In this document: in pieces, positions 1,874-21,223 of the stretch
Numbering within the stretch: position 1 is the first letter of the stretch
Layout: every line of letters begins with the position of its first letter
Source: a virus
Lineage: Duplodnaviria; Heunggongvirae; Uroviricota; Caudoviricetes
DNA length: 64,000 nucleotides
Reading direction: 5' to 3' (one strand)
Virus record (IMG/VR): IMGVR_UViG_3300020045_008999
Coordinates: 1-64,000 of that record
Position numbers and translations under genes: made by a program
Notes under the pieces: generated by a model
What the model was told of the DNA's origin: nothing
Database searches by the model: none
Seen by the model: only the letters and a program-made list of their open reading frames with translations

Positions 1874-2476
1874 ATGAAATATTTATCTTGGTTACTTCCT
1901 TTGGGAATCGCTGCAATCATAGTAATTGCATTTTATGGTCTAATCGTAGGATTTAATAATTCCGCTGTAATGTTACAAGAAACCGCAAAAGGATCTTGGG
2001 GAAATGTAGAATCATCCTATCAACGTCGTAATGATTTAATTGGAAATTTGGTGAAAACGGTACAAGGTGCTGCTAATTTCGAAAAAGGTACGTTAACCGC
2101 CGTTATTGAGGCAAGAGCAAAAGCCACATCAACTACAATTGATATTTCTAAAGCCACACCCGCTCAAATAGAAGCGTATCGTAACAATCAAAGTGCCGTA
2201 TCATCATCATTGTCTAGATTATTAGTTAGTGTAGAGCGTTATCCGGAATTGAAAGCCAATGAGAATTTTCTTCGATTACAAACTGAGTTAGAGGGAACTG
2301 AAAACAGAATTAAGTTTGCCCGTGACAATTACAATATTGCGGTTAAACCATATAATATACACATTAAAACCTTTCCTAATTCGTTCATCAATGGGTTTTT
2401 TGGATTTGTAGAATTGCCATATTATAAATCAGATAAAGGGGCTGAAAATGCTCCAGTTGTTGACTTTAAATTTTAA
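1874..2476 (+). CDS. lemA: LemA family membrane protein
   Basis: N-terminal TM helix followed by the conserved LemA core (SWGNVESSYQRRNDLIGNLVKTVQGAANFEKGTL...VIEARAKAT). Confidence 0.8.
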   Translation: MKYLSWLLPLGIAAIIVIAFYGLIVGFNNSAVMLQETAKGSWGNVESSYQRRNDLIGNLVKTVQGAANFEKGTLTAVIEARAKATSTTIDISKATPAQIEAYRNNQSAVSSSLSRLLVSVERYPELKANENFLRLQTELEGTENRIKFARDNYNIAVKPYNIHIKTFPNSFINGFFGFVELPYYKSDKGAENAPVVDFKF

Positions 2477-2485
2477 ATTTTAAAA

Positions 2486-3724
2486 ATGAAAAATATCGTA
2501 ACTGAATTTAGATGGCGCGGTCTATTACAAAACCTATCAAATGGGACCGAAGAACAATTAACAAAGGAATCGACAAGCGTGTACATTGGATTTGATCCAA
2601 CATCGGATTCACTTCATGTTGGAAGTTTAGTACCAATCATAATGTTGAAACATTTAGAAAATTTCAATCACAAACCAATTGTTTTAATTGGTGGGGCCAC
2701 TGGAATGATTGGTGACCCAAGTGGGAAATCCGAAGAACGCAACCAACTATCATCAGACGAGCTTGATAAAAATTATGAGGGAATTCGTAAAACCTTACGA
2801 CATTTTTTAACAAACGCAACGTTTGTAAATAATTTCGACTGGATGTCAAAATTCTCGTTTTTAGATTTCATTAGTCAAATTGGAAAAATGATTACTGTTA
2901 ACTACATGATGGGTAAAGAATCGGTGAAAACAAGATTAGATAAAGGCGGAATGTCCTTTACTGAATTCACATACCAATTGCTACAAGGATATGATTTCAT
3001 GCACTTGTATGAAAATTACAATTGCAAGGTGCAGATGGGTGGATCTGATCAATATGGCAACATGACTACTGGATTAGAGCTTATTCGTAAAAAAGGAGGT
3101 CACGGGTTCGCACTAACATGTCCATTATTGGTTAAATCTGATGGGCAAAAATTCGGAAAATCAGAATCGGGAAATATCTGGTTAGACAAATCCAAGACTT
3201 CGGTATATGAATTTTACCAATTTTGGTTAAACCAAAGTGATCAAGATAGTGAACATCTTATTAAAACACTCACTTTCATGGATCAAGAATCAATACTTGC
3301 TCTTATTGCCGAGCATAAAATTGATGAATCAAAAAGGTTGCTTCAAAAACGATTGGCTTCGGAATTAACTATATTTGTGCATAGTGAAGAAGACCTACAA
3401 GATGTTGTCAACGTTTCAAATGTTATTTTCAATCGTGGTATTTTCGATGATAATACCAATATGCAGATGCTTACAGAAGTAGTTAACGATGCCAAAGAAG
3501 TTGAATTATCATCCGGGGTTACCGTATTGGATTTTTTAACTATGTCAGATTTTCTAACGTCTAATAATGAACGACGTCGGGCATTAAATGAGGGATCGGT
3601 GTTGATTAATAAGATCAAGGTTAATATAGACACGATGATCACAAAATCACACTTCATTAAAAATCACTTACTGATTCAACGCGGTAAAAAAATGTCAAAA
3701 GTGATAGTTCTCACTAATGCGTAA
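2486..3724 (+). CDS. tyrS: Tyrosyl-tRNA synthetase (class I aaRS)
   Basis: YIGFDPTSDSLHVGSLVPI (HIGH-type motif region), KFGKSESGNIWLD (KMSKS motif, as in bacterial TyrRS), and a C-terminal S4-like domain. 412 aa. Confidence 0.9.
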   Translation: MKNIVTEFRWRGLLQNLSNGTEEQLTKESTSVYIGFDPTSDSLHVGSLVPIIMLKHLENFNHKPIVLIGGATGMIGDPSGKSEERNQLSSDELDKNYEGIRKTLRHFLTNATFVNNFDWMSKFSFLDFISQIGKMITVNYMMGKESVKTRLDKGGMSFTEFTYQLLQGYDFMHLYENYNCKVQMGGSDQYGNMTTGLELIRKKGGHGFALTCPLLVKSDGQKFGKSESGNIWLDKSKTSVYEFYQFWLNQSDQDSEHLIKTLTFMDQESILALIAEHKIDESKRLLQKRLASELTIFVHSEEDLQDVVNVSNVIFNRGIFDDNTNMQMLTEVVNDAKEVELSSGVTVLDFLTMSDFLTSNNERRRALNEGSVLINKIKVNIDTMITKSHFIKNHLLIQRGKKMSKVIVLTNA

Positions 3725-3774
3725 CATTTTCGTATAAATCTATAATAAGTATTAACAACCATATACATTTAAGT

Positions 3775-4044
3775 ATGCCAGAAATCGATGCATATGCTGC
3801 ACATAATTCGTTAATTATTCCGGATATATATCCTACTGATTTAGAGGAATGTTTGGTACTATTCGAAAGGATAAAATACGATAGTTTTGGATTTCCGTTG
3901 GTATTCCTAGACTATGACTATACGTTTAAAAGCTGGTGTGTTTGTTTTAGAAACCCTGCTAATTTTACTAATCCGGATATTAAAGAAAAGACACCCCTTG
4001 ATGCATGTCATCGAATGTTTGATTTTTTAAAATGTAAAAAGTAA
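3775..4044 (+). CDS. Hypothetical protein
   Basis: 89-aa ORF in co-directional gene array. Confidence 0.35.
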   Translation: MPEIDAYAAHNSLIIPDIYPTDLEECLVLFERIKYDSFGFPLVFLDYDYTFKSWCVCFRNPANFTNPDIKEKTPLDACHRMFDFLKCKK

Positions 4045-4093
4045 TATCTCACATGGTGATAATCCAAAAAGTACCTATTATAAAAAAAATAGT

Positions 4094-4381
4094 ATGTCAA
4101 ATTTCAATTATAAGTCACTTGTAGCTATTTGCGTTATTTTATTTGTTAATTGTGGTGAAAAACGCAATGAATCACAAGCTGCCAGTATTATGTCAGAACC
4201 CGATTTTGAAGAAACACAAGAAAGTCGAGTTAAAGAAGAACGCTTGGGGTATTCGGGTGTTACAATATTAACCGTGGATGCCCATGAGTATATCCATTAC
4301 AGAGATGGTAATAATGCGGCTGCTGTCGGTGGTATAATCCATAAATTCGATTGTAAATTCTGTTTGGGTAAACCGGATTAA
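4094..4381 (+). CDS. Putative small lipoprotein
   Basis: Signal peptide ending in a lipobox-like ILFVNCG. Confidence 0.4.
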   Translation: MSNFNYKSLVAICVILFVNCGEKRNESQAASIMSEPDFEETQESRVKEERLGYSGVTILTVDAHEYIHYRDGNNAAAVGGIIHKFDCKFCLGKPD

Positions 4382-4423
4382 CATTACATAAAATTATTAA
4401 TTATTAATTATATTCATTAAACA

Positions 4424-4684
4424 ATGAGTCATGAAAATACAAATGATTCACTAGATAAATCTGGTGATGTAAGTCGCTTTGAACCCCATTTTTTACAATA
4501 CTGGGAGCATGTTAAAGATGTTGTTGATGAAAATGGGTGGGTCTATAGTAAAGATGTTATTTATTTACTGGATTCATATTTTGAACACAACACTGATCAA
4601 GAAATCCTATTCGAGAAACACTATGATGATAAGCCTTGGAATGGCTATCGTTGGAAGCCGAAATCAATTCTAAACGTCTTATAG
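4424..4684 (+). CDS. Hypothetical protein
   Basis: 86-aa ORF. Confidence 0.35.
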   Translation: MSHENTNDSLDKSGDVSRFEPHFLQYWEHVKDVVDENGWVYSKDVIYLLDSYFEHNTDQEILFEKHYDDKPWNGYRWKPKSILNVL

Positions 4685-4996
4685 TTCGCGTCATTATTTT
4701 GATCGAAAATTATTAATATTAGCACCTATAGATAGATGAATACCGAAGAAATCAATGACAAGAATAATAACCATCCCACTGTTAGAGAAACAATACCATT
4801 GACAAATCAACAGATGTGGAAGATGGCAAAAATAATAACAGAAAAACAAAAAGCTGCCAGAGACCATCCAACTGATTTGATAGACTGGAATTTACTGGAG
4901 GGATTTTGGTTTGAATGGTTGGAAGAAGAATTATGTGTTGGTGAAATATAATACATGTAATTTTATAAAAAACACTAATTAATAACATTTGAAATT

Positions 4997-5224
4997 ATGT
5001 ACGATACATTTATGAACGACTTACATGGCGATTTGGATAAGAAAACAATTAAACCCGCTTTTGTTTCGGAAAGTTGTAATGGCGAAGTTTGCTCCGTTTG
5101 TGGTAAGGATGCTACGAATAAGTTAGGTGAAGAAATACCTTTTGATGATCCGAATAAAAATAGACATAATTTAACTGCATATGTTTGTCGAGAACATTTC
5201 ACTATGATTGTTGGTGGAAGCTAA
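4997..5224 (+). CDS. Small Cys-containing protein (CxxC...CxxC, putative zinc-binding)
   Basis: CNGEVCSVCGKD...CREHF. Confidence 0.35.
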   Translation: MYDTFMNDLHGDLDKKTIKPAFVSESCNGEVCSVCGKDATNKLGEEIPFDDPNKNRHNLTAYVCREHFTMIVGGS

Positions 5225-5281
5225 AACAATCCAACATGAGTACAAACTTTTTTTATACCAATTCCTGAAAGTTAAACTGTT

Positions 5282-5608
5282 ATGAACATTCTTTTCATTT
5301 GCACTGCAAATAGGAATAGAAGTAGGACTGCTGAAATTTATTTCCAGAATAAATATCCTAAAGATAGATTCCGAAGTGCAGGTATTAATAAATATTTATC
5401 AGAAAGACATGGTGGCATTCATGTCAAAAAATATATGCTTGACATCGCTGACCGAATTATTTGTGCAGAATCTGAACACTCAGACTGGATTGTTCAAAAT
5501 ATTGACAAAAAATACCTCAACAAAATTGAGGTATTGAATCTTGCTGATAATGAAAATTTTATGAGCCAAGAATTAATTAATATTTTAGGTGAGATATTTC
5601 AATTGTAA
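5282..5608 (+). CDS. Low-molecular-weight protein-tyrosine phosphatase / ArsC-fold protein (short)
   Basis: N-terminal P-loop ILFICTANRNRSRTAE matches the CX5R(S/T) signature of LMW-PTP/arsenate reductase. Confidence 0.45.
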   Translation: MNILFICTANRNRSRTAEIYFQNKYPKDRFRSAGINKYLSERHGGIHVKKYMLDIADRIICAESEHSDWIVQNIDKKYLNKIEVLNLADNENFMSQELINILGEIFQL

Positions 5609-5629
5609 GACTAACATGTCTTATTCGTA

Positions 5630-5929
5630 TCAACTTACATGACCGCAGAATCTTTTACTCAATTGGTGTTGGTACATATCCCCAATAGTAGTAGACGTAT
5701 TATCCAAGTCCAGTATTTCTGCTATTGCTGCACACCTAATTCGATTAGGACATTCCAGCCATTTGTAGTAGTAATAATTATCATAGGAATAGTAATAATT
5801 ATTATCAAAGTATATTCCGTGTTCCCAATTGTACCCCTCAAGTATTTCATCAAAAGAGTCACAACTTCCATAGAATGATTGTGCAACATTATTAAAATCT
5901 TTAATATCTTTTTTAAATTTATTTTTCAT
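5630..5929 (-). CDS. Hypothetical Tyr-rich protein
   Basis: 99-aa ORF containing a YYYSYDNYYYYKW stretch. Confidence 0.35.
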   Translation of the reverse strand: MKNKFKKDIKDFNNVAQSFYGSCDSFDEILEGYNWEHGIYFDNNYYYSYDNYYYYKWLECPNRIRCAAIAEILDLDNTSTTIGDMYQHQLSKRFCGHVS

Positions 5930-5946
5930 TTAATTATTTTTTTATT

Positions 5947-6225
5947 ATGAATGGTCAATCACCAACCGAGTTAGCTAAAAATTTTGACAGAGTACGTACA
6001 ATCATCGAAAAAGCCAAAGGTGATGAAGATAAAGAAATTTCATTAGCCAGAAAACAGGCGAATGCAATATTAAATGAATACAAAGCAATCAATCGGGCAC
6101 TGGCCGCTCGGGAACTCGGAAAGGAAAACATATTTGAAATTTTCTTCAAACGAGCCTATGAATTGGGATCAGTAAGTCAAGTGGATTATCGATCCTATGT
6201 TATCAGTAAATTATTAAATGATTAA
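5947..6225 (+). CDS. Hypothetical protein
   Basis: 92-aa ORF. Confidence 0.35.
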   Translation: MNGQSPTELAKNFDRVRTIIEKAKGDEDKEISLARKQANAILNEYKAINRALAARELGKENIFEIFFKRAYELGSVSQVDYRSYVISKLLND

Positions 6226-6572
6226 TACGCACTGAACCCGGTTATATCAACTGGAAATTCTTGATTTATTTCAGTCTCTGTGCTGAATTCCTCAACTGGC
6301 TCTTCTTCAACTAGATCTACCGGAAATTCATCATTTATATTAATTGGAACTTCATCAATAATTGGTTCTTCTACTAATTCAACTGGAAACGTTTCTGCGA
6401 TTTCCCGACCAATTTCCAAAGTATCATCAGCAGATACAACATTATCAACTAAATTAATATCTAATGGTTCTTCAATAAAAGTTGATACAATACTACTTCC
6501 CCTCTGTCTTGTCTCATCCCGTAATCTTTCGCGCTCGTCTATAAATGATTCAAATGTTTTAATTAATGCCAT
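6222..6572 (-). CDS. Acidic tandem-repeat protein
   Basis: Three copies of (N)EFPV(D/E)LVEE(E)P. Confidence 0.45.
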   Translation of the reverse strand: MALIKTFESFIDERERLRDETRQRGSSIVSTFIEEPLDINLVDNVVSADDTLEIGREIAETFPVELVEEPIIDEVPININDEFPVDLVEEEPVEEFSTETEINQEFPVDITGFSAY

Positions 6573-6826
6573 AATATTATTTTTTTTATTATAGTATATA
6601 TAATATTTTATACTTCATGTTTTGTGAATTATCACATATTATACAAAAATACTATTTAAATATCAAATAACAATGACTTAGACCTACATTTATTGCTAAT
6701 ATGTGAATATATATTACTAGTGTATATTTGGTATTATCGATGTTATTGATTTATAATGCATTGATTAATGAACTTTTTATTATTTATATCATATACGTAT
6801 ATAATATAAATGTAAAAATGTAAATC
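6573..6826. promoter_or_regulatory. Very AT-rich divergent intergenic region (putative divergent promoters)
   Basis: 254 bp without ORFs between a minus-strand and a plus-strand gene, with TATA-rich runs. Confidence 0.35.
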
Positions 6827-7575
6827 ATGGAACAAATTATAATAGCTTTATACGTAAATGTAGTACATCTACCCCAAACCAAAAAGATTGAATTACTTGC
6901 AGAATATCGAAATATGTTAATTAATGAAGTAGGAATTACATATCACGTATTTGGTACAGTATCCGGTGAAACAAAAATGGAGTTAATTTATCCAAGTAGT
7001 ACTTGTGTAAATCTAGAAGATGCCATTAATAAAGTAAAAGAGTTAGAACTAGAAATCAATAAATAAAAATAAATACTATGATAATTTTAGATAAAAATTA
7101 TACAATTGACAGTGATGGTATGGGAGTAATTTTAAAATTCACAGAAGCCCGCACTAGATTGGATAAAAATAATGAAACGGTAGCTTACGTTGCTACAAAC
7201 AATTACTATTATGGAACGGTACCACAAGCGTTATGTAAATACAAAGATCTTGTATTAGAAGTACCGGAATCACTAATCGAAGTATTGGAGCGATTAAATG
7301 AAGTTGAAAGCTTGATACGATCCATTAAGTTTGATGTAAAAGTATAAGGTGTGGAAATTTCAAATCCAATGAAAATGTGTATTGTTAATTATATTTGCAC
7401 TACACATGGATATGGTATAGATGATCTAACTATACTAAGTGTCCATAGTACAATCGATGGATCAATGGTAATAAAATATAGCGATTATGAGTATAGTTTT
7501 GCATTAACCATCGCGGAATTTGAATTGAAAAAACTGAAAAGAGTCTGTGAAATAAATGAAATTTTAAATAGTTAA
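6827..7575 (+). other. Three small hypothetical ORFs (6827-7066, 7078-7347, 7351-7575)
   Basis: Tightly packed co-directional ORFs of 74-89 aa. Confidence 0.3.
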
Positions 7576-7580
7576 AAGTT

Positions 7581-8183
7581 ATGAGTACTAAAAATAATAC
7601 ACCCACTTCAATATTTGAATACCAAGACAAATGTCCATCATGTGGTAGTTTTTGCAACATTGAACAAGATTTAGATGACAATGACTTTTGTAATGATTGT
7701 AGACCTATGGAAATCAATATTATTGTGGCAGCTTCTGAAAATTTAACCATAGGTAAAGACAATGATCTGCCTTGGAAAATACCTAGTGATCTAAAAAAAT
7801 TCAAACAAATAACCACCGGGTCGATTGTAATAATGGGCAGAAAGTGTTATGAAAGTATTGGGCGGCCATTACCAGGTAGACAAAATATTGTAATTACTAG
7901 GAATACTGATCTTACTATTGAGGGTTGTGAAGTTGTCAATAGCATCAATCAGGCATTATCACTGTGTAAAAATGATTCACGGGAAATATTCATAATTGGT
8001 GGTGCTGAAATTTACAAACAAACGTTTAGTTTTGCAACTAAATTATACCTCACCGAGATAAAAGGAAATGTAGATGGTGATGTCAAATTAGAAGGAATGA
8101 ATTTAGAGGAATGGTCGTTGGTTTATGAAAGTGAATTATTTGAAGAAAATGGTACACAATTTAGATTCTTGGAATACATATAA
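7581..8183 (+). CDS. folA: Dihydrofolate reductase with an N-terminal zinc-ribbon extension
   Basis: INIIVAASENLTIGKDNDLPWKIPSDLKKFKQITTGSIVIMGRKCYESIGRPLPGRQNIVITRN aligns with the canonical DHFR core. Preceded by CPSCGSFC...CNDC. Confidence 0.9.
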   Translation: MSTKNNTPTSIFEYQDKCPSCGSFCNIEQDLDDNDFCNDCRPMEINIIVAASENLTIGKDNDLPWKIPSDLKKFKQITTGSIVIMGRKCYESIGRPLPGRQNIVITRNTDLTIEGCEVVNSINQALSLCKNDSREIFIIGGAEIYKQTFSFATKLYLTEIKGNVDGDVKLEGMNLEEWSLVYESELFEENGTQFRFLEYI

Positions 8184-8222
8184 AAAACTGTATTAGATAA
8201 ATTCGAGTTTTTAATAATTACC

Positions 8223-8261
8223 ATATTGGCATTTACTTAATGATAAAGTAAATGCCAATAT
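8223..8261. terminator. 14-bp perfect stem-loop (atattggcatttac / gtaaatgccaatat, 11-nt loop) followed by a T-run, downstream of DHFR
   Basis: Read directly from sequence. Confidence 0.35.
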
Positions 8262-8276
8262 TTTATATATACTAAT

Positions 8277-8870
8277 ATGAAATATATCAGAGCGCGTTCT
8301 ACCATTGCCATTATGGAAAATCATAACATAAACCCACATTATGATTTTAATAATTTATCAAAATCAGATCTTGTGGAAATAGCAAAATGGGGCTTACTCG
8401 GAATGTATTCCGATAGTGGGTGTTGGGATGAGGACTTTGACCAATCCAGTGAAACTAATTTAGAAACAGCCATCGACAGGGCACTTGGGGATTTTAATAT
8501 ATTTTTAGGTACACCATATCCATTAGGGTTAGGTAATATTCCAATTAAGCCTACCATACACCGATTGGTAAGACTAGGACATAAATCTGAATTGGATTTA
8601 AATAAACTTGGAACTAGCTGGTTTTCTAATCCAACCCAATATCATAATTATAATTTTTATGATATGTTAGATTATCTAAAACCATTGAATCAAAAAATAC
8701 CAGGTGAAGTCTATTTACTTACCGCTGAATGTACTATCGATAACATTGATGTACAACATACTTTATGGCAACGATCAATCCAACACTCTGAAAATGAAAT
8801 TGTAATAATTGATGATAGTAAACTTTCACTAATATCATGTGAGGTAATAAAAAATTTCACTTACTTATAA
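8277..8870 (+). CDS. Hypothetical protein
   Basis: 197-aa ORF. Confidence 0.45.
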   Translation: MKYIRARSTIAIMENHNINPHYDFNNLSKSDLVEIAKWGLLGMYSDSGCWDEDFDQSSETNLETAIDRALGDFNIFLGTPYPLGLGNIPIKPTIHRLVRLGHKSELDLNKLGTSWFSNPTQYHNYNFYDMLDYLKPLNQKIPGEVYLLTAECTIDNIDVQHTLWQRSIQHSENEIVIIDDSKLSLISCEVIKNFTYL

Positions 8871-8922
8871 TTTAATTAGTAATATTAAATATTTATTTAT
8901 ATTTTTGTTAAAAAGTTAATTC

Positions 8923-9657
8923 ATGAGAAAGCTTCAAAAAATGTGTGATTTTATATTTGCACATAATACACAATTAGATAATCCGAAAACTGCTAAAATT
9001 TTTTCAAAATATGCAATGTTTTTAGGCAAGGAATTATTATTAAAAATGTTCATAGCATGTGATTATAGAGGGGTGCCAATTGAACCGCCAGTTTTTGTCG
9101 ATACGATGGAAGCAGTCGAGAATAATACGTATAGCCTAGAAATGGATAAGTATGTAATTGCTTGCAATGATGTAATATTCGAGGGGTTTGAAGTAGTGTC
9201 AAATAATCACAAATACAAATACATAGACATTAAGTGGGGTACATTTATCTTGACATGGAGTATCAATGCACAAATGTTTTTACAATATTCAATCGTGGAA
9301 GACCTGTGTAACATCGTCAATTTATCGGATTCAGTCTCCTTTGATGATGAATCCAACAATGCACTAATCCAGGAAATAGACCACTTGGAATTCATATACA
9401 ACCGAATGGCCTATTCCCATCAAGAAAATACCAATATTGATTATATGTTAAGATTGGAGCGAATAATCAATGACAAAAAGACAATAATCGGAATCTTGCC
9501 GACTACAACTATCCAACATGAGTATGAAATGTTTTTCTACGATGATGTGGAAATTAATGAAGCTAATGGTGAATGGGTACCAATTCCGATTGAAAATATT
9601 AACCCAGAGAAGATTGACCATTATATTGCTGGTGGATCTTTGCGTAGAATCATATAA
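8923..9657 (+). CDS. Hypothetical protein
   Basis: 244-aa ORF. Confidence 0.45.
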   Translation: MRKLQKMCDFIFAHNTQLDNPKTAKIFSKYAMFLGKELLLKMFIACDYRGVPIEPPVFVDTMEAVENNTYSLEMDKYVIACNDVIFEGFEVVSNNHKYKYIDIKWGTFILTWSINAQMFLQYSIVEDLCNIVNLSDSVSFDDESNNALIQEIDHLEFIYNRMAYSHQENTNIDYMLRLERIINDKKTIIGILPTTTIQHEYEMFFYDDVEINEANGEWVPIPIENINPEKIDHYIAGGSLRRII

Positions 9658-9658
9658 T

Positions 9659-9844
9659 ATGGCAACAGTAGTATCTAAATGTCCGAAGTGCGAAAGTACA
9701 AATTTATTAGAATTGAATCCTGATTTAAGAGAAACATCCCCTTTGCCACTCGTACAAATTGACACAGTATGCAATGATTGTAAGCATGTCTTCAAACATG
9801 CCAGTGGGACTAAGTCCGGTAAGAGAAGAGGAATATTGTATTAA
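9659..9844 (+). CDS. Small zinc-ribbon protein
   Basis: ATG immediately after the stop of the upstream gene. CPKCES...CNDCKH. Confidence 0.4.
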   Translation: MATVVSKCPKCESTNLLELNPDLRETSPLPLVQIDTVCNDCKHVFKHASGTKSGKRRGILY

Positions 9845-9857
9845 TCAACCATAAGCA

Positions 9858-10241
9858 ATGACAAAAATAGCAGACAACAATGAATATTTTGGGAAGAGGG
9901 TACACATTTGGACAGCACTACATAAGAATAGTTATGTAATCACCGGATTACTACCACTCAATGTAGATTATATCGCGGATAATAGTGTGGGAAGAGTAGT
10001 TCAGGTGCGTCTAAAGGCGGGGGCATATGGTAGCAATTGTGTTATACTGCGCCATGTAAATGGTAGTTTAATTCCCCATGAAAATCAAAGTTTTTTCGAA
10101 ATTCCAGAACAATTTCACCAGTACCTTGATACCTGTTTTGATGGTGTATATTTAGACGATTCCGATCGATACGAATATTCATTACAAGGCGAGTTCAAGG
10201 AATCAGGGTTTTTAGTATCTGGTACCAACCATACACTATAA
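9858..10241 (+). CDS. Hypothetical protein
   Basis: 127-aa ORF. Confidence 0.4.
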   Translation: MTKIADNNEYFGKRVHIWTALHKNSYVITGLLPLNVDYIADNSVGRVVQVRLKAGAYGSNCVILRHVNGSLIPHENQSFFEIPEQFHQYLDTCFDGVYLDDSDRYEYSLQGEFKESGFLVSGTNHTL

Positions 10242-10281
10242 ATAATAAAGTTATGTATAAATATTTGACACCATATAATAA

Positions 10282-10755
10282 ATGACTTTAGATGATATTT
10301 ATAAATTCATGGAAAAGGAATGTGATAATTTCAAATACCGGATCGATTACGATATAAGACAAGGATATGTTGTGAATTCCAGCGAGAATTACACCTGGAC
10401 ATATCCGCTTTATTTGAATCACAAAGACATATCCATGTTTCCATTTAAATTTGGAACAATACACACGTCTTTTATCGCATCTAGCACCTCACTAGCTTCA
10501 TTAATAAATTCACCAGATTACGTCCGGGACCATCTATTATTGGATGGCAATTTATTACAATCACTAAAAGGAATTAGCAAACATGTGGGGGTCAGACTGT
10601 CAATCAAACACAACCCATTATTAATCAATTGTGAAAATTTTACAATTTTGAATAACTTCATTAGAGAAAATCCATTTTGTACAATTTTGATGGATGACGA
10701 TTTTGCAAAAGCGTTTACTAGATTTAACACCATTGCGGATATTATTAGTTTGTAA
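10282..10755 (+). CDS. LRR-like repeat family protein, subfamily B (C-terminal DDDFxKAF(T/N)R motif)
   Basis: C-terminal ILMDDDFAKAFTRFNTIADII matches other B members. N-xL(K/T)SL-G repeat units. Confidence 0.55.
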   Translation: MTLDDIYKFMEKECDNFKYRIDYDIRQGYVVNSSENYTWTYPLYLNHKDISMFPFKFGTIHTSFIASSTSLASLINSPDYVRDHLLLDGNLLQSLKGISKHVGVRLSIKHNPLLINCENFTILNNFIRENPFCTILMDDDFAKAFTRFNTIADIISL

Positions 10756-11197
10756 TAATATCTGTGATTGTTACATATCGATTATACGCATTCAAGAATC
10801 CTTGATCTGCAAATATATTACCACCTACGTAGGTGAACATTAAAATTTTAAAATTTTCTTCATTTATAAGCAGCTGATTATACTCAATATGTAAATTACC
10901 ACCAATGAATTTTGGCATTCCCTCGATAGACGTTAACATATTATAATCCGCCCAAAAATTACCACATACACTATTGGGTGAATTAATTAAATTAGTTAGC
11001 ATGTTTTTACGCACAGATGCATTTTCATGTACCGTATTAATGTTAAAATTTGGCAAAGACGTCAAATTTCTATTATATGGAATTTGTAAATTTTGGTATA
11101 TATCAATGCTCATATCGGGATTAATTGAATATTCAACTACATTGTGATTCTTACACATTTTCTCAATCATCTCGATTGTATTATTAGAGTCCGTCAT
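10745..11197 (-). CDS. LRR-like repeat family protein, subfamily B
   Basis: N-terminal IEKMCKNHNVVEYSINPDMSIDI and C-terminal GFLNAYNRYVTITDII motifs. Tail-to-tail with 10282-10755. Confidence 0.55.
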   Translation of the reverse strand: MTDSNNTIEMIEKMCKNHNVVEYSINPDMSIDIYQNLQIPYNRNLTSLPNFNINTVHENASVRKNMLTNLINSPNSVCGNFWADYNMLTSIEGMPKFIGGNLHIEYNQLLINEENFKILMFTYVGGNIFADQGFLNAYNRYVTITDIITN

Positions 11198-11275
11198 ACT
11201 ACATTTAATTTGATATGTATATAATAATTCTAAGTTAAAGTTTTAATATATAGTTCAAATATATATCTATACACA

Positions 11276-11941
11276 ATGTCAAAAATATTCAAATTTGAAG
11301 ATTTTTTATTAAATGAATCATATTTAAAAGGGGGAAGACCTCCGTTATATCACAGTACCCACTATTTCACTAATATATTAAAAAGTGATTTACTCAGAGT
11401 TAATAAACCAGTATTTGATGTACATAGTAGGAAATCAATATCATTCACACGTGATCGCTATTATGGGGATGGTGGTCCAAAAAAATTCATGGTGGACGTG
11501 GACCACTTAATAAAAGATGGATATAAACCAGAACCAGTAGATGAAATTGGTTCAGCACTTAATAAAATGTCTAAAATAAAAGAACCAAAACCTTTTTTCA
11601 AAGGATATTCTAAAGTAAATCCAAGCAATAAAAAAATTATACACAATATACCTGGCCTACAAACTGGAATAGATACATCACTAAGTCAAGAAAGTGAAGA
11701 GCGCGTATACAAAGACATTCCTAATTTTGGAAGATATGTAATCGAAATAATATTACCGGATAATTCAGTCGAACGATACAAACCAGAGCTTAGTGATTAC
11801 TTAACACAATACCCACATATTGTTGTAAAAAACAACAAAGGGGTAACGCTAATGACTTATGAAGATGTTGAAAAAAGTAATTCAGTTACCAAGTATATCA
11901 CTGCAGATAACATGCTTTCTGAATCTATTAAAGTCAAATAG
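11276..11941 (+). CDS. Hypothetical protein
   Basis: 221-aa ORF. Confidence 0.45.
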   Translation: MSKIFKFEDFLLNESYLKGGRPPLYHSTHYFTNILKSDLLRVNKPVFDVHSRKSISFTRDRYYGDGGPKKFMVDVDHLIKDGYKPEPVDEIGSALNKMSKIKEPKPFFKGYSKVNPSNKKIIHNIPGLQTGIDTSLSQESEERVYKDIPNFGRYVIEIILPDNSVERYKPELSDYLTQYPHIVVKNNKGVTLMTYEDVEKSNSVTKYITADNMLSESIKVK

Positions 11942-12392
11942 TCCAACTGAAATAGCCGCTTCTGATAAGGCGTGGATATCTACGATATCATTGATAAAAT
12001 CTTCAACTATTGGTTGAAGATTTTCTTGCTTATCAACACTAATTAACATAATGTTTTTTGATAAATAATTTAAATAGTCAGTAGTTTCCATCGCTTTATT
12101 TTTCACAAATATAGTTCAAATAAGTGAGGAATACAAATATATATTCGACATTATTCGAGAAGTTGTAAAATTGCAATCGTCCGGGAAAATGATCTTTTAA
12201 TATTATCACAGCTTATTATTGGAGGCTTGGTTATTTTTGATCGAAATATTTATATTGTTTTTTATATAAACACTGCCATGTATATCTACGGACAGGTCAT
12301 GATTTATGGTATATCTACCAGCTGTAAAAAACATCTAACCGTACATATTCTGCACACATTAATTTTATATTCTCCACGGTTGTCATACTCTG

Positions 12393-12752
12393 TTATATTT
12401 TACAAATTACTTTGTAGGTGGTCGCAATACGAAATGCATTTCCGCCATTTTTTTCAGACATAACAAGTGAGGAATCCTTTTCGATTTTGTACAACTTGAC
12501 GCTTTCATCAATGGTACCAGCCTTTAGATTATTAATGGTAGCATCTAATAGCACAACTTCTTCATATGCTTCAATTTCAATCATCTTACTGCGATATACC
12601 TCAAATGGTCTAATTAAATCGGCCACAACATACGCGGTAGTTTTGGAAATGTTGGTAAATTTATTTATAACATATAAAGTGATCAAAACAATAGTAATGA
12701 AGAAGCCTAATGCTTGGAACATTCCTTTTAAAAATTCAAATAATAGTGTCAT
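12393..12752 (-). CDS. Hypothetical membrane protein
   Basis: N-terminal TM helix FFITIVLITLYVI. Confidence 0.35.
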   Translation of the reverse strand: MTLLFEFLKGMFQALGFFITIVLITLYVINKFTNISKTTAYVVADLIRPFEVYRSKMIEIEAYEEVVLLDATINNLKAGTIDESVKLYKIEKDSSLVMSEKNGGNAFRIATTYKVICKI

Positions 12753-12796
12753 TCTGATTGGTGTATTTTAAATTATTTATATTAAGTTGATTGTAA

Positions 12797-13408
12797 TTAT
12801 TTTAATATGTTTCGAATTTCTTTGTATCTATTCCATATTGGCATGTATTTTTCGTCAATATGTAATTGTCCGTTAGAAACGTCATATAACATTGCATAAT
12901 CGGCCGCTTTAAATGTATAACATTCTAACATTTTCATAAATATAAGATCTGCTTTTTCTGGAAAATATGCTAATGTCTCCAAAGGTAATAAACTCAAACT
13001 TGCAAATGTTCTTATTGTTTTAGGACATCCTTTTAAATTACTGAGCTTATTTTGGGTGACACTAAATGACTCGTTAACATGCACAGGGCATCCTTCAAGC
13101 GAAGTTATTTTATTACAATGTATATGTAAATGACCATTGCCATAATTTTCAAATCCGATGGTATTTTTCAAATAATTATTTCCGCAATTGAAATCACCAC
13201 CTACGGTCTCTGGGAACCCATACGAATCTTCGATACTATTATATGCACAAGAGAAGTCGCCACTAATATGTTTGAATTGAATAGGTAGTCTTCGCAGTGA
13301 TTGGTTTGATAAATTCACGCTCCCCATTACCGAAACTTTATGATTTGCATCAATTTCGTAATCAATAATTTCAAACATATCACATATTTTTTTAATTTCC
13401 GAAATCAT
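12797..13408 (-). CDS. LRR-like repeat family protein (divergent B-type member)
   Basis: N-terminal KKICDMFEIIDYEIDANHKVSVMGSVNLSNQSLRRLP and repeats GDFNCGNNYLKNTIG / NKITSLEGCP. Confidence 0.5.
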   Translation of the reverse strand: MISEIKKICDMFEIIDYEIDANHKVSVMGSVNLSNQSLRRLPIQFKHISGDFSCAYNSIEDSYGFPETVGGDFNCGNNYLKNTIGFENYGNGHLHIHCNKITSLEGCPVHVNESFSVTQNKLSNLKGCPKTIRTFASLSLLPLETLAYFPEKADLIFMKMLECYTFKAADYAMLYDVSNGQLHIDEKYMPIWNRYKEIRNILK

Positions 13409-13883
13409 TTTTTTTAAGTATATCTATGCGTTCAGTGAATAACAAATCAATTTGGGTTTTTTCATCGTCTTTGCGCTTATTTGAAATTTCTAAATAATGT
13501 TCATACAGGACATTACCATCATTTAATGAAATAATGTCGTCTATATCTTTGTACGATAGTTTATAATTTACCATATGATTATAGTGAAACAAGTTTAGTA
13601 ATTTAGCAACAATTCCAGTTTTTTGTATTTTTTCAGTTTTGATATTTATTGTCATTTTTACTAAACCTATGCCACTAATTTCCACATTAAATAGACCAAT
13701 ACCAGGTACAAAATCATAAAAGTAATTAGTATTAGTGTCGGCGTTGTCAGACATTAATAATGACTTATTTATAAATCCGGTGTTGCTAAATAATTGATAT
13801 TTATATTTTTGGCAATGATGAACTGAAACTATTGTACTCGCATCTAAGTATGCCACTTTTACTAAATCATGAAGTTTTCCCAT
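13392..13883 (-). CDS. Hypothetical protein
   Basis: 163-aa ORF. Confidence 0.4.
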   Translation of the reverse strand: MGKLHDLVKVAYLDASTIVSVHHCQKYKYQLFSNTGFINKSLLMSDNADTNTNYFYDFVPGIGLFNVEISGIGLVKMTINIKTEKIQKTGIVAKLLNLFHYNHMVNYKLSYKDIDDIISLNDGNVLYEHYLEISNKRKDDEKTQIDLLFTERIDILKKNDFGN

Positions 13884-14269
13884 ATAGTTTTTTGCTTACA
13901 AATATATAATTTTTATAGATACATTAATACATTTATAGAAAATAAATTACCATACATATTTTTTTAATATTTGTATTTTTAAGTTTTATTATCAGGGGTG
14001 TCTCGGGTAGATGATTTTTTTTCTAAGAGATCCATTAATAACATAAATATACCGGCGGCACACCATCCTATCAAAAAATCTGGAATTTCAATTTCTATAA
14101 TAGATGATAATAGCTTAATTCCGATTACATACAAAAATACATTTAACAAACTATATGTTATGTTTGACATTAGGTGATTTATTTAATTTTTATTTATATT
14201 AAAAATTGCACCATTTGTTTGTTGCTTATTTAAAATATTTTATATATTTGCATCAACAAACAAAAAACT

Positions 14270-14701
14270 ATGAAAATTATATTCTATTACATTCGGTTAA
14301 TTACTATTTTGATTAAAAATTTTGGTTCTAATATTGACTTTCTAATAGATGATTCAGGGTCTAACCAAACGACTGACATTACATTCATCAGAAATTCATT
14401 ACATTTAATGGTTTTTTTCAATTTTAATATTGTAATATTGCATGGTCCCGTTGTAACACGAATTTACGATGAAGAAGACGTTGATAATTTTATAAAGAAC
14501 TTCACACCGAGTCTTTGTGGGACTGATTTAATATCAAACCTTAATAAAATATCAAAAAAATCAATTTTGTTATGTTATAGTGATTTTTACCTATCTGAAC
14601 TAGAATTTTCCAAACTTGATAAATTCAGAAAACGACTTCTTATATCGCAGAGTGCCTATCGAGGTGCGTCTAGTATCGATTCTCAAATAACCTTTATATA
14701 A
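14270..14701 (+). CDS. Hypothetical protein
   Basis: 143-aa ORF. Confidence 0.35.
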   Translation: MKIIFYYIRLITILIKNFGSNIDFLIDDSGSNQTTDITFIRNSLHLMVFFNFNIVILHGPVVTRIYDEEDVDNFIKNFTPSLCGTDLISNLNKISKKSILLCYSDFYLSELEFSKLDKFRKRLLISQSAYRGASSIDSQITFI

Positions 14702-14736
14702 TACTAATTTATACCAAACAATTTAAATAATTTACA

Positions 14737-15261
14737 ATGATGTATGAACAATATCTATGGTACATAATGATACCAAGTGGAACCATTTACGCACTTCTTA
14801 TAATATTAACCTTTGTAGGCGGAGACATAGATGTGGACGTTAACTTAGATGATGGCATTGGTGGTGACGATATTATTGGCCTATTCACGTTTCGAAATGC
14901 TATATATTTCCTATTTGGATATTCAGCGGGGACCTTAATAGGTATTAATGCTGGATATACCATCCTTTCTTCCACATTATTAGGGGTCGGAATTGGCATG
15001 ACACTGGTGATAATCACAGTGTTGCTTATGTTTCTTATGTTGAAATGTAATCAAATAAATATACCTAGTTATGATGGCCTTATCGGTAAGAGTGCTAAAG
15101 TATATTTAAGGGTAAGTCCTGGGGCAAACGGCAAAATAACGGTTAACGTCAATGGTACTCAAAAAGAAATGTATGCATCATCTGATATCGACATACCAAG
15201 CGGTGCTACCGTAAAAATATTAAGTATAGATAATGGTATTGCTGTTATCGAACAAGTATAA
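14737..15261 (+). CDS. NfeD-like membrane protein (short YuaF-type with C-terminal OB-fold)
   Basis: Multi-TM N-terminal part plus C-terminal GKSAKVYLRVSPGANGKITVNVNGTQKEMYASSDIDIPSGATVKILSIDNGIAVIEQV. Immediately upstream of the flotillin gene. Confidence 0.65.
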   Translation: MMYEQYLWYIMIPSGTIYALLIILTFVGGDIDVDVNLDDGIGGDDIIGLFTFRNAIYFLFGYSAGTLIGINAGYTILSSTLLGVGIGMTLVIITVLLMFLMLKCNQINIPSYDGLIGKSAKVYLRVSPGANGKITVNVNGTQKEMYASSDIDIPSGATVKILSIDNGIAVIEQV

Positions 15262-15289
15262 ATTAGTAATCAATTAAATTTTTATAAAT

Positions 15290-16801
15290 ATGTTATTCAC
15301 TTACATTGTAATTGGGCTTATTGCCCTGGGATTTTTCGCTACCGTAGTAGCCCTTATATCTAGATATAAAAAATGTCCATCGGACAAACTATTAGTAGTT
15401 TACGGTAAAACCGGTAAAAATGCCGATGGAATGACGTCTACCGCCAGAGTACACCATGGTGGTGGAGCATTTATTTGGCCAGTTATTCAAGATTATCAAT
15501 GGCTATCGCTTAAACCAATCGCGATTGATGTTGATTTACGAGGGGCATTATCTAAACAGAACATCCGAATTGATGTTCCTTCTACCTTTACAATTGCAGT
15601 ATCTACTGATCCAAATACCATGATTAATGCTGCCGAACGTCTTCTCGGAATGCAAAGTACTGAAATTGCCACCCTGAGTAAAGATATCATTTTGGGCCAA
15701 TTAAGATTGGTTATTGCTACCATGGATATTGAAGAAATTAATGCAGACCGTGATAAGTTCCTTACCGCTATTCAAAATAATTTAGAATCGGAATTGGATA
15801 AAGTTGGATTGCGTTTGATCAATGTTAATATTACCGATATCCAAGATGAATCCGGTTATATTAAAGCATTAGGCCAAGAGGCTGCTTCTAAGGCAATAAA
15901 TGATGCAAAAGTATCAGTTGCCGAGAAAACAAGAGATGGTGCCGTAGGATCTACCGCAGCAAGTAAAGATGAAAGAATACAAACATCACAGTTACGTGCA
16001 GATGCAGAAGTAGGTGAAGCACAAGCACTCATGAGTTCTGAAATTGGTAGAGCTGCCACTATAGCAACACAGAGATCGCAACAAGCCGAATTAAATGCAA
16101 CCGCAGTGTCTGGTGAAAATGAGGCTGCTATTAAAATAGCGGATACTACAGCACTCAGAAAGGTGGCAGAAGCTGAGGCTTCTAAGAAATCAACGGTGGC
16201 TGAGAATGTCGCAAAAGCCGAGGCAGAAAAAATAACTTTTGTTTCAGAAACACAAGCCGAACAAGCCCGTGCTGATAAATCTAAAGCTACCTTATATGCC
16301 AATGAAATTGTACCGGCGGAAATTGCCAAGCAAAAGAAAATTGTGGAAGCCGAAGGGGAAGCTGAGAGTATTAGAAGTATTGCCAAAGGTGATGCGGATG
16401 CATTATTAATGGCGAAAACCGCGGAAGCCGAAGGTATTGCAATAATCTTAGAAAAGCAAGCCGAGGGTTTGACTAAATTCATTGAGGCCGCTGGTGGTAA
16501 TCCGGATAAAGCTCTGCAGTTAATGATTGTTGACAAACTTCCGGAATTAATGAAAATACAAATGGATGCAATTGCCAATATCAAAATTGATAAGATCACC
16601 GTGTGGGATAATGGTGGCGAGGGTAGTGAGGGATCTACTGCGGGATTCCTAAAATCAATGTTAGGTGCATTGCCAGCATATGATGAACTATACAAATCGA
16701 TCGGTAAGTCATTACCGGGTATTGTAAACATTGATGATGTTTCAGCAGCTGGTAGAAATGATTCGACACCAAGTGAAATTGCATTCGAAGAAGTGAAATA
16801 A
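15290..16801 (+). CDS. Flotillin-like SPFH/band-7 protein (FloT/YuaG type)
   Basis: N-terminal TM, an SPFH core, and a long Ala/Glu-rich EA-repeat coiled-coil region. Operon-like with NfeD. Confidence 0.8.
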   Translation: MLFTYIVIGLIALGFFATVVALISRYKKCPSDKLLVVYGKTGKNADGMTSTARVHHGGGAFIWPVIQDYQWLSLKPIAIDVDLRGALSKQNIRIDVPSTFTIAVSTDPNTMINAAERLLGMQSTEIATLSKDIILGQLRLVIATMDIEEINADRDKFLTAIQNNLESELDKVGLRLINVNITDIQDESGYIKALGQEAASKAINDAKVSVAEKTRDGAVGSTAASKDERIQTSQLRADAEVGEAQALMSSEIGRAATIATQRSQQAELNATAVSGENEAAIKIADTTALRKVAEAEASKKSTVAENVAKAEAEKITFVSETQAEQARADKSKATLYANEIVPAEIAKQKKIVEAEGEAESIRSIAKGDADALLMAKTAEAEGIAIILEKQAEGLTKFIEAAGGNPDKALQLMIVDKLPELMKIQMDAIANIKIDKITVWDNGGEGSEGSTAGFLKSMLGALPAYDELYKSIGKSLPGIVNIDDVSAAGRNDSTPSEIAFEEVK

Positions 16802-16816
16802 TCACAATCTAAATTT

Positions 16817-16848
16817 ATGCCCTCATGTGAAAATATGAGGGTTTTTTA
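16817..16848 (+). terminator. Rho-independent terminator (ccctcat..atgaggg + T6)
   Basis: Hairpin plus T-tract directly after the flotillin stop. Confidence 0.55.
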
Positions 16849-17574
16849 ATGAAATTTAAAAATATGAACACTGACGAGGAATTTTTCTTAGACTATATTA
16901 AGCTTGCTGCCCCAATATTTGGGGTTTTCGGTAAACGTGCAGAAATGATAAATGATAAATTTATACCAGAGGATATTGTGTATTTAGAGATTAGTGACAC
17001 ATTGGAAGTTGTATATCAACATAAACCATATCTACATGGCAATTTTTACCCAGTTATTACAAAACGAATTAAGAAATATAAGAAAGCGTGGAATGCCAAT
17101 GGTATATTGGATCATAATATTCATTGTATACATGGTGATTATTCAATAGAATCTTTGATAGCATCATTAATGATTAGTGCATCATTATCCAGAAGCAACA
17201 AACCAAGTAAATTATCATCACAGGAGTATGAAAAGTTTAAATTAGCGGTGGATTCATACCACTATTCAATTCCGCGTAATGGCGAAAGTAATTATGGCGA
17301 ATCAATCATTTATTATAATAGCTTTACTGATATTGGAAAGGAAAATATTATGAATTGTAAAAAGTTCTTAGAGAATAATACATCACTTACTCCAATACAA
17401 GATGCATTCAATGAAGTCTTATTGAAAAATAAATTACCTACACATATGCCTTTTACCAGATGGTGTGAGTTATTGACAATGAAAGAGATCGATTATTCTA
17501 CGGTAGAAGAAATTAAACTAAAACGCGCCGCAAAGTATAAAAAGCTGGGGATCGATTTTGAAAGAAATAAATAA
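16849..17574 (+). CDS. Hypothetical protein
   Basis: 241-aa ORF. Confidence 0.45.
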   Translation: MKFKNMNTDEEFFLDYIKLAAPIFGVFGKRAEMINDKFIPEDIVYLEISDTLEVVYQHKPYLHGNFYPVITKRIKKYKKAWNANGILDHNIHCIHGDYSIESLIASLMISASLSRSNKPSKLSSQEYEKFKLAVDSYHYSIPRNGESNYGESIIYYNSFTDIGKENIMNCKKFLENNTSLTPIQDAFNEVLLKNKLPTHMPFTRWCELLTMKEIDYSTVEEIKLKRAAKYKKLGIDFERNK

Positions 17575-20921: not shown

Positions 20922-20977
20922 TAATTGTATCAATTAGTAATAGCCACTACACTAAAAACCAATTATACAATTACTTG

Positions 20978-21059
20978 TGGGGAGGGCTGGATTCGAACCA
21001 ACGAAGGCAATGCCGCCAGATTTACAGTCTGGTCCTTTTGACCGCTTGGGTATCTCCCC
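20978..21059 (-). tRNA. tRNA-Tyr (anticodon GTA), long variable arm
   Basis: Reverse complement GGGGAGATACCCAAGCGGTCAAAAGGACCAGACTGTAAATCTGGCGGCATTGCCTTCGTTGGTTCGAATCCAGCCCTCCCCA folds as a cloverleaf closely parallel to bacterial tRNA-Tyr. Confidence 0.8.
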
Positions 21060-21151
21060 TACCGGATATTTATAAAATAGAAGATGCAAATAATACAAAT
21101 TATACATTTTTAAATATTCTTAATTAACCGTTTAAGGTCAATTTAATTTGT

Positions 21152-21223
21152 GGTCCCGGAGAATTTTGAAATCCCGGCCTGAAAATTATGAGTTTCCTGC
21201 TCTACCTCTGAGCTACGAGACCA
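21152..21223 (-). tRNA. tRNA-Met/Ile2 (anticodon CAT), non-canonical T-arm
   Basis: Reverse complement GGTCTCGTAGCTCAGAGGTAGAGCAGGAAACTCATAATTTTCAGGCCGGGATTTCAAAATTCTCCGGGACCA. Acceptor, D and anticodon arms are good; the T-stem has a T53-T61 mismatch. Confidence 0.55.

Follow-up and report, generated by a model that had tools for sequence, protein, structure and literature searches.

A 64-kb stretch of viral DNA (positions 1 to 64,000 of IMG/VR record IMGVR_UViG_3300020045_008999; hereafter, the window) carries a complete membrane-scaffold operon of the type found on bacterial chromosomes, in which a short NfeD protein is followed directly by a flotillin, a protein of the SPFH superfamily (Table 1). 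The explanation that we consider, on balance, the probable one is composite: a host-type NfeD-flotillin operon resides in the genome of a huge phage, it would serve there to maintain the host membrane, and a LemA-family gene in the same window, which an earlier note on this DNA had grouped with the pair, is separate from it. The pair is real and clearly delimited, and database entries already contain it. Lists of SPFH-domain proteins in phage genomes go back to 2006 (PMC1524935), and their presence in phages was still described as unexplained in 2026 (PMC13239085). The small phage SPFH/Band 7 proteins (T4-like 44RR, Aeh1, and RB43, PMC1524935; Schitoviridae GIB1, PMC13239085; PHROG 200) are not of the flotillin type, and those papers report no NfeD partner (PMC1524935; PMC13239085). 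Our literature search found no paper on a phage flotillin-NfeD pair, its distribution, constraint, or role, which agrees with the earlier note's remark that no role is established for it; the two papers found to name flotillin and phages together concern prophage integration into the host floA gene and flotillin-associated rhodopsins.

The downstream gene of the pair, the single SPFH gene in the window, encodes a protein that we assign to the flotillin family (SPFH2). Residues 31-214 match the Band_7/SPFH model PF01145 (100.4 bits; cut-off, 23.6; E = 1.6e-28), and in a PDB sequence search, residues 56-463 aligned colinearly with residues 25-406 of human flotillin-1 (9L3G/9BQ2; E = 1.3e-23), as the protein also does with flotillin-2. 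Both flotillins outscored the stomatins (E ~1e-5 to 1e-3), and no HflK or HflC chain was found at E <= 1e-3 among the PDB sequence matches. An N-terminal hydrophobic anchor (residues 1-26; Kyte-Doolittle peak, 2.67) precedes the SPFH domain, which is followed by an Ala/Glu-rich coiled coil (residues ~215-400) and then by a C-terminal oligomerization region; residues 215-400 are 36% Ala plus Glu, with 23 EA/AE dipeptides. The SPFH core and long EA-rich coiled coil described in the earlier note are borne out by the Band_7 match, the flotillin-1 colinearity, and this composition. Orthology to FloT in the narrow sense was rejected: the NCBIfam FloT model NF058507 aligned over positions 4-443 of 477 with only 155.6 bits against a Bacillus-specific equivalog cut-off of 700. 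PHROG 200, annotated "lipoprotein," gave a weak match (E = 2e-5). Antisense to the coiled coil lies a 291-codon open reading frame (ORF), with similar antisense ORFs in the loci labeled L004, L007, L014, and L102; it most likely arises from the codon composition of this Ala/Glu-rich region and does not represent a gene.

For the upstream gene, profile and modeled fold together point to a short NfeD of the YuaF type. Of the hidden Markov model checks proposed in the earlier note, those for LemA and Band_7 were confirmed, whereas NfeD itself fell below the PF01957 gathering score (21.6 bits against 29.1; E = 2.5e-4), its identity being carried instead by the homologue profile and the fold. Seven homologues were drawn for alignment from the equivalent position in viral loci; six of the seven match PF01957 (best E = 5.6e-7), and the profile of the aligned viral homologues matches the soluble domain of Bacillus subtilis YuaF (2K14; E = 2.6e-4) and, weakly, the stomatin operon partner of P. 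horikoshii (3WWV; E = 0.055). In the AF2 model, built from a shallow alignment (the homologue search gave three proteins) and trustworthy for the C-terminal domain alone, helices at residues 2-27, 44-71, and 76-107 are followed by a five-stranded C-terminal beta-barrel (residues 119-173; pLDDT, 70-86); hydropathy agrees with the three modeled helices. The six best Foldseek PDB matches of the model are all NfeD OB domains (YuaF, YbbJ of QmcA-YbbJ, MTH693, PH1510-C, 3CP0, and 2EXD), with YuaF matched at E = 2.3e-5, a TM score of 0.75, and a root-mean-square deviation of 2.2 A. The short membrane protein with a C-terminal OB-fold that had been proposed from the letters alone is upheld by the YuaF profile match, the barrel, and these six structures. 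A Pfam scan of its 174 residues found no further domain and no ClpP-like protease domain. An acidic loop, GGDIDVDVNLDDGIGGDD, lies between helices 1 and 2. The window protein scored 216 bits on the viral NfeD profile, which it helped to build, and the NfeD partners from Bacteroidota chromosomes scored 167-171 bits.

The two genes lie on the same strand, 28 nt apart, in the canonical yuaF-floT order that the earlier note had recognized (layout as in PMC2636767). Among the known systems closest to them are the SPFH2 plus NfeD2 operons yuaF-floT(yuaG)-yuaI of B. subtilis and yqiJ-yqiK of Escherichia coli (Hinderhofer et al. 2009, PMC2636767), with which the window shares (i) NfeD before flotillin with a short gap, (ii) an NfeD of ~174 aa with N-terminal helices and an OB-fold, the window protein matching YuaF 2K14 by both profile and fold, and (iii) a flotillin composed of anchor, SPFH domain, Ala/Glu-rich coiled coil, and C-terminal region. 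It differs from them in being virus encoded and in the low FloT score given above. Where B. subtilis has the downstream acetyltransferase gene yuaI, the window has an unrelated extra gene upstream, here called ORF143, and sigma-W-type regulation cannot be inferred for the window operon.

ORF143 ends 35 nt before the NfeD start. Because a promoter-like motif stands at position 14243, the two gaps measure only 35 and 28 nt, and an intrinsic terminator begins at 16819, ORF143, NfeD, and flotillin form one apparent three-gene transcription unit. The motif, TATATTTG, fits the Bacteroidota -7 consensus TAnnTTTG. It occurs in 11 intergenic copies in the window against 2.4 expected under a uniform spread, a figure inflated by the AT-rich spacers, and nine copies are correctly oriented, 5-80 nt before a start codon; as a promoter element it is suggestive only. 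A sigma-70 promoter scan found fewer sites than in shuffled sequence (18 against 29) and is uninformative for this organism. ORF143 itself has no family match in Pfam, PHROG, NCBIfam, or PADLOC, and its family is tiny, with six relatives among 1.84 billion representative proteins; the motifs DDSxS and YSD are invariant. A counterpart stands at the equivalent position in L104, a contig of 20.8 kb built from an independent set of reads that is syntenic with window positions 2486-17574, and ORF143 does not adjoin the pair in other viral clades. DDSxS and YSD are reminiscent of a metal-binding site, such as that of a minimal vWA/MIDAS domain, for which neither a Pfam match nor a PDB match by protein or profile was found; the single-sequence AF2 model was unusable (pLDDT, 40), and no fold could be assigned.

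The pair is far from confined to this window. A pattern scan of IMG/VR with a flotillin alignment confirmed flotillin in at least 199 viral stretches; among the 80 fetched, most belong to a gut clade resembling the phage csAssE-Sib, and the others come from environmental contigs, the longest of 425 and 498 kb. GenBank phages contributed 11 records with a flotillin match, including the 635-kb uncultured phage LR745206 and two cultured or complete phages in which a "flotillin family protein" is already annotated, csAssE-Sib (OR575929), from the gut and ~150 kb long, and the Vibrio phage KIT04 (LC487410). The rarity of a phage-borne pair that the earlier note implied was accordingly overstated. 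An NfeD-like ORF, detected with a profile of NfeD-like proteins, was found in a position between 14 nt overlapping with and 85 nt upstream of the flotillin gene in every viral locus with upstream sequence, except in KIT04 and LR745206. In KIT04 (L002, 3680-3928), the preceding gene encodes an 82-aa two-helix membrane protein without an OB domain, which looks like either a truncated NfeD or a non-homologous replacement. In a comparison of 15 representatives from the viral clades, NfeD and flotillin were the only shared genes. A third conserved component was sought and rejected; the other shared clusters were antisense ORFs within flotillin or genes of close relatives. The two genes form an almost invariant module across many viral lineages. 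The flotillins of csAssE-Sib and KIT04 (Demerecviridae, T5-like) are 36% and 34% identical to the window protein, and the NfeD homologue directly upstream in csAssE-Sib is annotated merely as "transmembrane protein." These phages differ from ours in lineage and genome size, KIT04 also in its partner protein, and csAssE-Sib in its neighboring genes, which are replication genes.

In bacteria (GTDB, one genome per species, 185,579 species), at least 594 stretches encode relatives of the window flotillin. The best 80 are 49-55% identical to it and come mostly from Bacteroidota, with some from Clostridia, and an NfeD-like ORF directly precedes flotillin in 71 of the 74 bacterial loci with upstream sequence. 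The closest cellular relatives are chromosomal pairs of Bacteroidota (for example, in Cyclobacteriaceae metagenome-assembled genome JBPRGG010000177, Runella zeae, and Wandonia haliotis; flotillin identity, 49-55%), which share the adjacency and the NfeD subtype with an acidic loop between helices 1 and 2. Because order, flotillin identity, and NfeD subtype all correspond, we regard the phage module, on its sequence, as an ordinary NfeD2-SPFH2 operon of the Bacteroidota type, as such operons are defined in PMC2636767. The phage clade is nevertheless distinct: its 57-94% relatives stand in IMG/VR viral or, where the context was checked, phage-like contigs, and the window pair, unlike the chromosomal ones, is flanked by phage genes. 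In a neighbor-joining tree, which is crude and carries no support values, the window falls in a viral clade beside, yet distinct from, the Bacteroidota sequences, and the csAssE-like, KIT04, and LR745206 flotillins occupy separate branches. Among relatives in the window's own flotillin clade (L014, L102/L103, and the P0005 contig), NAD-salvage genes (NAPRTase, PRPP synthetase, and a nucleoside deoxyribosyltransferase-like gene) stand no more than a few kilobases from the pair; none of these genes was found among the scanned window ORFs.

The earlier note had placed LemA and the pair in one span of scaffold genes (positions 1874-16801), and in this respect, it does not hold. The LemA gene itself is as claimed: PF04011 is matched over the full model with 171.4 bits (cut-off, 26.2; E = 1.5e-50), and the protein has one N-terminal hydrophobic segment (residues 1-34). 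However, 12 kb and ~25 unrelated ORFs, including those for tyrosyl-tRNA synthetase (TyrRS) and dihydrofolate reductase (DHFR), separate it from the pair, and it belongs to another transcription unit. No LemA gene was found within 3-10 kb of flotillin in ~95 viral flotillin loci or within 10 kb at 80 bacterial ones, and no flotillin was found near LemA in four viral LemA loci. LemA homologues are present in 38 GenBank phage records, including LR745206 and the Enterococcus Schiekvirus phages, where they are annotated as LemA or "virion structural protein." Among the 11 flotillin records, LR745206 is the sole clear phage genome that also has LemA, tens of kilobases away; csAssE-Sib and KIT04 gave no LemA match. 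LemA was therefore rejected as a component of an NfeD-flotillin system, there being no linkage at the viral or bacterial loci, and its gene is real and independent of the module. A separate observation is a 273-aa multi-pass membrane protein that matches PHROG 1383 (phage LemA-like; E = 3e-8), with no Pfam LemA match and no BLAST similarity to the LemA protein above; its ORF, just downstream of one encoding another multi-pass membrane protein, of 435 aa, may represent a second LemA-like gene that has diverged very far.

Comparison with L104 indicates how strongly the flotillin is constrained. Its proportion of non-synonymous differences (pN) is 0.032 and that of synonymous differences (pS) 0.61, against 0.13-0.32 and 0.43-0.83 in neighboring genes, so that its non-synonymous divergence is ~4 to 10 times below theirs; the dN/dS ratio of ~0.026 is the lowest of the ten genes compared, although approximate, with dS near saturation. 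Recent horizontal transfer as the source of the 94% identity was rejected because pS lies within the neighbors' range. Because dN/dS is so low, the flotillin is a functional gene and not a decaying one, and it is under strong constraint in the phage as the most constrained gene of its neighborhood. Within the csAssE-like clade, median dN/dS values were 0.037 for flotillin and 0.056 for NfeD (hundreds of pairs). NfeD is the less conserved partner also by identity (74% against 94% for flotillin in L104; 33-35% against 68% in L014/L102), and in yuaF-floT and yqiJ-yqiK, NfeD likewise diverges far faster than the SPFH protein (PMC2636767).

The window as a whole reads as part of a very large tailed-phage genome (contig, ~597 kb) and not as bacterial chromosome. 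Flotillin and NfeD are 100% identical to proteins from one 596,785-bp JGI contig (flotillin = P0001). The nearest flotillin relatives (67-70% identity) lie on contigs of 56-318 kb beside genes for a T4-type prohead protease, T4 RNA ligase, Thg1, NAPRTase, and PRPP synthetase, and flotillin relatives occur in IMG/VR contigs of up to 498 kb. The window holds ~110 mostly short ORFs at a coding density of 92%; most have no Pfam domain, and many nonetheless match phage protein families, with PHROG matches in 8 of 10 further ORFs scanned (several below 1e-40) and TyrRS matching PHROG 9270 at E = 8e-121. A structural protein is homologous over >80% of its length to gp53 of the Synechococcus phage Syn5, to a Maribacter phage protein, and to an uncultured Caudoviricetes contig. 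What remains also fits a typical large phage: two clusters with six tRNA genes between them, a muramidase carrying a peptidoglycan-binding domain, DHFR, and a helix-turn-helix/PD-(D/E)XK nuclease. These features sustain the earlier note's reading of the region as phage. The contrary reading, namely, bacterial chromosome, a prophage flank, a misassembly, or decaying passenger DNA, could appeal to the commonness of the pair as a bacterial operon, to the lack of a recognizable capsid, portal, or terminase gene among the scanned ORFs of the 64-kb window, and to the fact that several of the 11 GenBank "phage" records with flotillin are short, unannotated fragments. Yet PHROG-type phage genes flank the pair on both sides, GC is even across its region (0.29-0.35), gene order is kept in the independent assembly L104, no bacterial flotillin among 185,579 species exceeds 55% identity whereas viral-type contigs reach 57-94%, and the dN/dS of 0.026 excludes decay. 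That reading is largely refuted, and we regard it as extremely improbable. A megablast search of window positions 1-25000 against GenBank phages gave no match. The phage's host is probably a Bacteroidota bacterium, the phylum of all named bacterial sequences among the top 120 flotillin matches.

How the two proteins might act is suggested by the solved structures of flotillin-1/2, HflK/C, and QmcA-YbbJ (PMC11260169, PMC13000311, PMC12624060, PDB 8Z5G), from which the following architecture is drawn by homology. After infection, the flotillin would insert its N-terminal anchor into the cytoplasmic membrane, and its SPFH and coiled-coil regions would oligomerize to build a cage, shaped as a ring or a dome, on the cytoplasmic side. 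NfeD would place its three helices within the enclosed membrane patch, with the OB domain contacting the SPFH ring; the NfeD model matches full-length YbbJ of the E. coli SPFH1-NfeD pair QmcA-YbbJ (8Z5G), and this pair, together with HflK/C-FtsH, offers a structural template for the arrangement of SPFH cage and NfeD. QmcA-YbbJ is of the stomatin type (SPFH1) and HflK/C of the SPFH3 type, whereas the window protein is flotillin-type. By supplying its own copy of a scaffold that maintains the host envelope, the phage would preserve the fluidity, integrity, and energization of the membrane and the organization of its protein complexes while a huge genome is replicated over a long cycle, when host gene expression may be shut down, and the pair would thus be an auxiliary host-function gene set. 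This role in host-membrane maintenance and organization during a long infection is favored because the module simply duplicates a scaffold associated with the host envelope, and we hold it tentatively, as plausible but short of probable. The B. subtilis yuaFGI operon is sigma-W dependent, a link to envelope stress (PMC2636767), and a related SPFH protein recruits PspA and so links it to the membrane (PMC8581546).

The earlier note had offered replication or assembly sites, modulation of FtsH, and superinfection exclusion as possible functions, and gene context favors none of these. The last belongs to a wider possibility, which we consider unlikely, that flotillin-NfeD assemblies serve in membrane-level conflict, shielding the infected cell from competitors or host suicide systems, either by blocking DNA entry (superinfection exclusion) or by buffering against pore-forming or depolarizing abortive-infection effectors. 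The pair does recur in unrelated phage lineages like a mobile cassette of two genes, seated in variable regions of accessory appearance, as is common for conflict genes; the evolution of NfeD far outpaces that of flotillin; and a host-type promoter motif would fit early expression. On the other hand, the very strong purifying selection on flotillin, with no sign of diversification, is not what genes in an arms race typically show, hundreds of bacteria carry the pair as an ordinary operon of the chromosome, and LemA, ORF143, NfeD, flotillin, and six other window ORFs matched no PADLOC defense model. A literature search on SPFH proteins and anti-phage functions found nothing relevant.

Modulation of FtsH, which the earlier note had suggested by analogy with HflK/C and lambda cII, would mean that the flotillin cage sequesters or modulates host proteases of the FtsH or HtpX type and so stabilizes phage or host proteins. 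It has a basis in the interaction of SPFH1 (QmcA/YbbK) and SPFH3 (HflK/C) proteins with FtsH (PMC2636767; PMC12330512), but the analogy is weakened because the window has a single flotillin-type gene, no HflK/HflC pair, and no similarity to HflK/C at E <= 1e-3, its best solved relatives being flotillin-1/2 and then stomatins. HflK/C is, moreover, a periplasm-facing hetero-oligomer of two paralogues, unlike cytoplasm-facing YbbK (PMC2636767), and the window's single flotillin-type protein presumably faces the cytoplasm. With no FtsH-related gene or known substrate among the scanned window ORFs either, we think protease control improbable.

A platform for morphogenesis or lysis, in which the scaffold would designate places on the membrane where proheads assemble or DNA is handled, or would corral holins and so time lysis, seems to us comparably improbable. 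The gene for a muramidase-type endolysin lies 3.2 kb downstream of the pair, the relative L102 has an SLT-domain gene ~3.7 kb downstream, and eukaryotic flotillins organize membrane platforms (PMC11775717); the endolysin gene, however, belongs to a separate transcription unit on the opposite strand, the pair has no lysis or structural gene as a constant neighbor from clade to clade, and the neighbors in csAssE-Sib are replication genes.

Several points also weigh against the maintenance role and the composite explanation of which it is part. The physiological role of a phage flotillin is pure inference. Neighborhoods differ by clade: csAssE-Sib has replication genes beside the pair, the window's clade has genes of NAD salvage, and the window itself has small ORFs. 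Because the neighbors differ in every clade, gene context cannot discriminate between roles. Extreme conservation fits an obligate homo-oligomer and does not separate the roles, and the ratio that expresses it is approximate, as noted above. B. subtilis yuaG mutants show no growth defect under the stresses tested (PMC2636767), so that pure maintenance may be too weak a function for such constraint. Finally, the assignment of the host draws solely on the best bacterial matches and the promoter-like motif.

The remaining features of the window are collected in Table 1. Translation cargo is prominent: the TyrRS gene directly follows LemA, and tRNA genes are joined by an ORF with a PHROG match annotated histidyl-tRNA synthetase. 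Positions 1-2000 have a GC content of 0.426, against 0.29-0.36 elsewhere, and an ORF in this part has a weak sigma-70 region-4 match. A block of three large ORFs (775, 547, and 468 aa), with a GC content of 0.38-0.39 against ~0.31 elsewhere and a strong positive GC skew, is probably a virion structural module; its 547-aa protein is the structural homologue of Syn5 gp53 and the Maribacter phage protein, and its 775-aa protein has C-terminal matches in "Virus Rctr197k" and in a Caudoviricetes contig. A pair of neighboring ORFs matches the two ends of PHROG 1735 (673 positions), with the middle third absent, and could be a split or rearranged gene or the result of a domain deletion. At least 14 window ORFs form one paralogous family, all matching the same three L104 ORFs at 25-38% identity (one at 57%); no Pfam domain was found in the ten members scanned, and the family amounts to a gene expansion of considerable size, as yet unexplained, in this phage.

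Table 1. Features of the 64-kb window and amino-acid identity of encoded proteins to their counterparts in contig L104
Feature	Positions	Strand	Identity to L104	Remarks
ORF with sigma-70 region-4 match	977-1537	-		Weak match
LemA-family membrane protein	1874-2476	+		PF04011; ends 9 nt before TyrRS gene
TyrRS	2486-3724	+	73%	Full length; TIGR00234, 360 bits
DHFR			71.5%	
Putative Bacteroidota-type -7 promoter element	14243-14250	+		TATATTTG; 20 nt upstream of ORF143 start
ORF143	14270-14701	+	58%	Small lineage-specific protein, 143 codons; first gene of apparent unit
Short NfeD, 174 aa	14737-15261	+	74%	YuaF/YqiJ/YbbJ type; profile and predicted fold
Flotillin, 503 aa	15290-16801	+	94%	Prokaryotic SPFH2 type; Pfam, PDB, NCBIfam, hydropathy
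Antisense ORF, 291 codons	15856-16731	-		Most likely not a gene
Intrinsic terminator	16819-16848	+		10-bp stem GCCCTCATGT/ATATGAGGGT, then T-run; 18 nt past flotillin stop
Other syntenic genes compared			48-79%	
tRNA-Tyr and tRNA-Met pair	20977-21222	-		
ORF of PHROG 1735 pair	26200-26988	-		PHROG 1735 positions 487-673
ORF of PHROG 1735 pair	26999-27736	-		PHROG 1735 positions 4-245
179-aa ORF	28430-28969	-		PHROG match annotated histidyl-tRNA synthetase
Probable virion structural module	35108-40544	+		Three large ORFs
Structural protein, 547 aa	37477-39120	+		Syn5 gp53 homologue
273-aa multi-pass membrane protein	53234-54055	-		PHROG 1383
435-aa multi-pass membrane protein	54077-55384	-		
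tRNA-Lys, -His, -Phe, -Trp cluster	63661-63970	-		
14-copy family, copies 1-7	10745-11197, 12797-13408, 29816-30307, 30300-30737, 33719-34417, 44519-44905, 44928-45548	-, -, -, -, -, +, -		
14-copy family, copies 8-14	47531-48139, 55722-56336, 56684-57358, 59078-59875, 60133-60939, 60921-61664, 61787-62392	-, -, -, +, -, +, +		

What is new here is the recognition of the NfeD partner in phages, of a near-invariant module, and of flotillin as the most constrained gene of its neighborhood, together with the removal of LemA from the system. For annotation, this means that the "transmembrane protein" encoded before phage flotillins should be read as the NfeD partner and that LemA should not be grouped with the pair. 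A bolder thought, which we put forward as doubtful, is that the flotillin-NfeD cage is a virus-built membrane compartment with a phage-specific job beyond replacing the host's housekeeping scaffold. If so, the compartment would fence off a patch of inner membrane against abortive-infection effectors or rival phage DNA or would organize a viral membrane process, and large phages could spread the NfeD-SPFH2 operon laterally; its patchy distribution in bacteria has been attributed to lateral transfer (PMC2636767).

Bacterial flotillins have been much discussed, and their core physiological role is still debated. That the constraint on the phage flotillin is tighter than that on DHFR and the other conserved neighbors compared implies a function of the scaffold that directly limits infection. 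A phage flotillin would accordingly offer an experimental handle, being dispensable for the cell and scorable for the phage, with the cultured Vibrio phage KIT04 and the abundant csAssE-like phages of the human gut as the most tractable cases.

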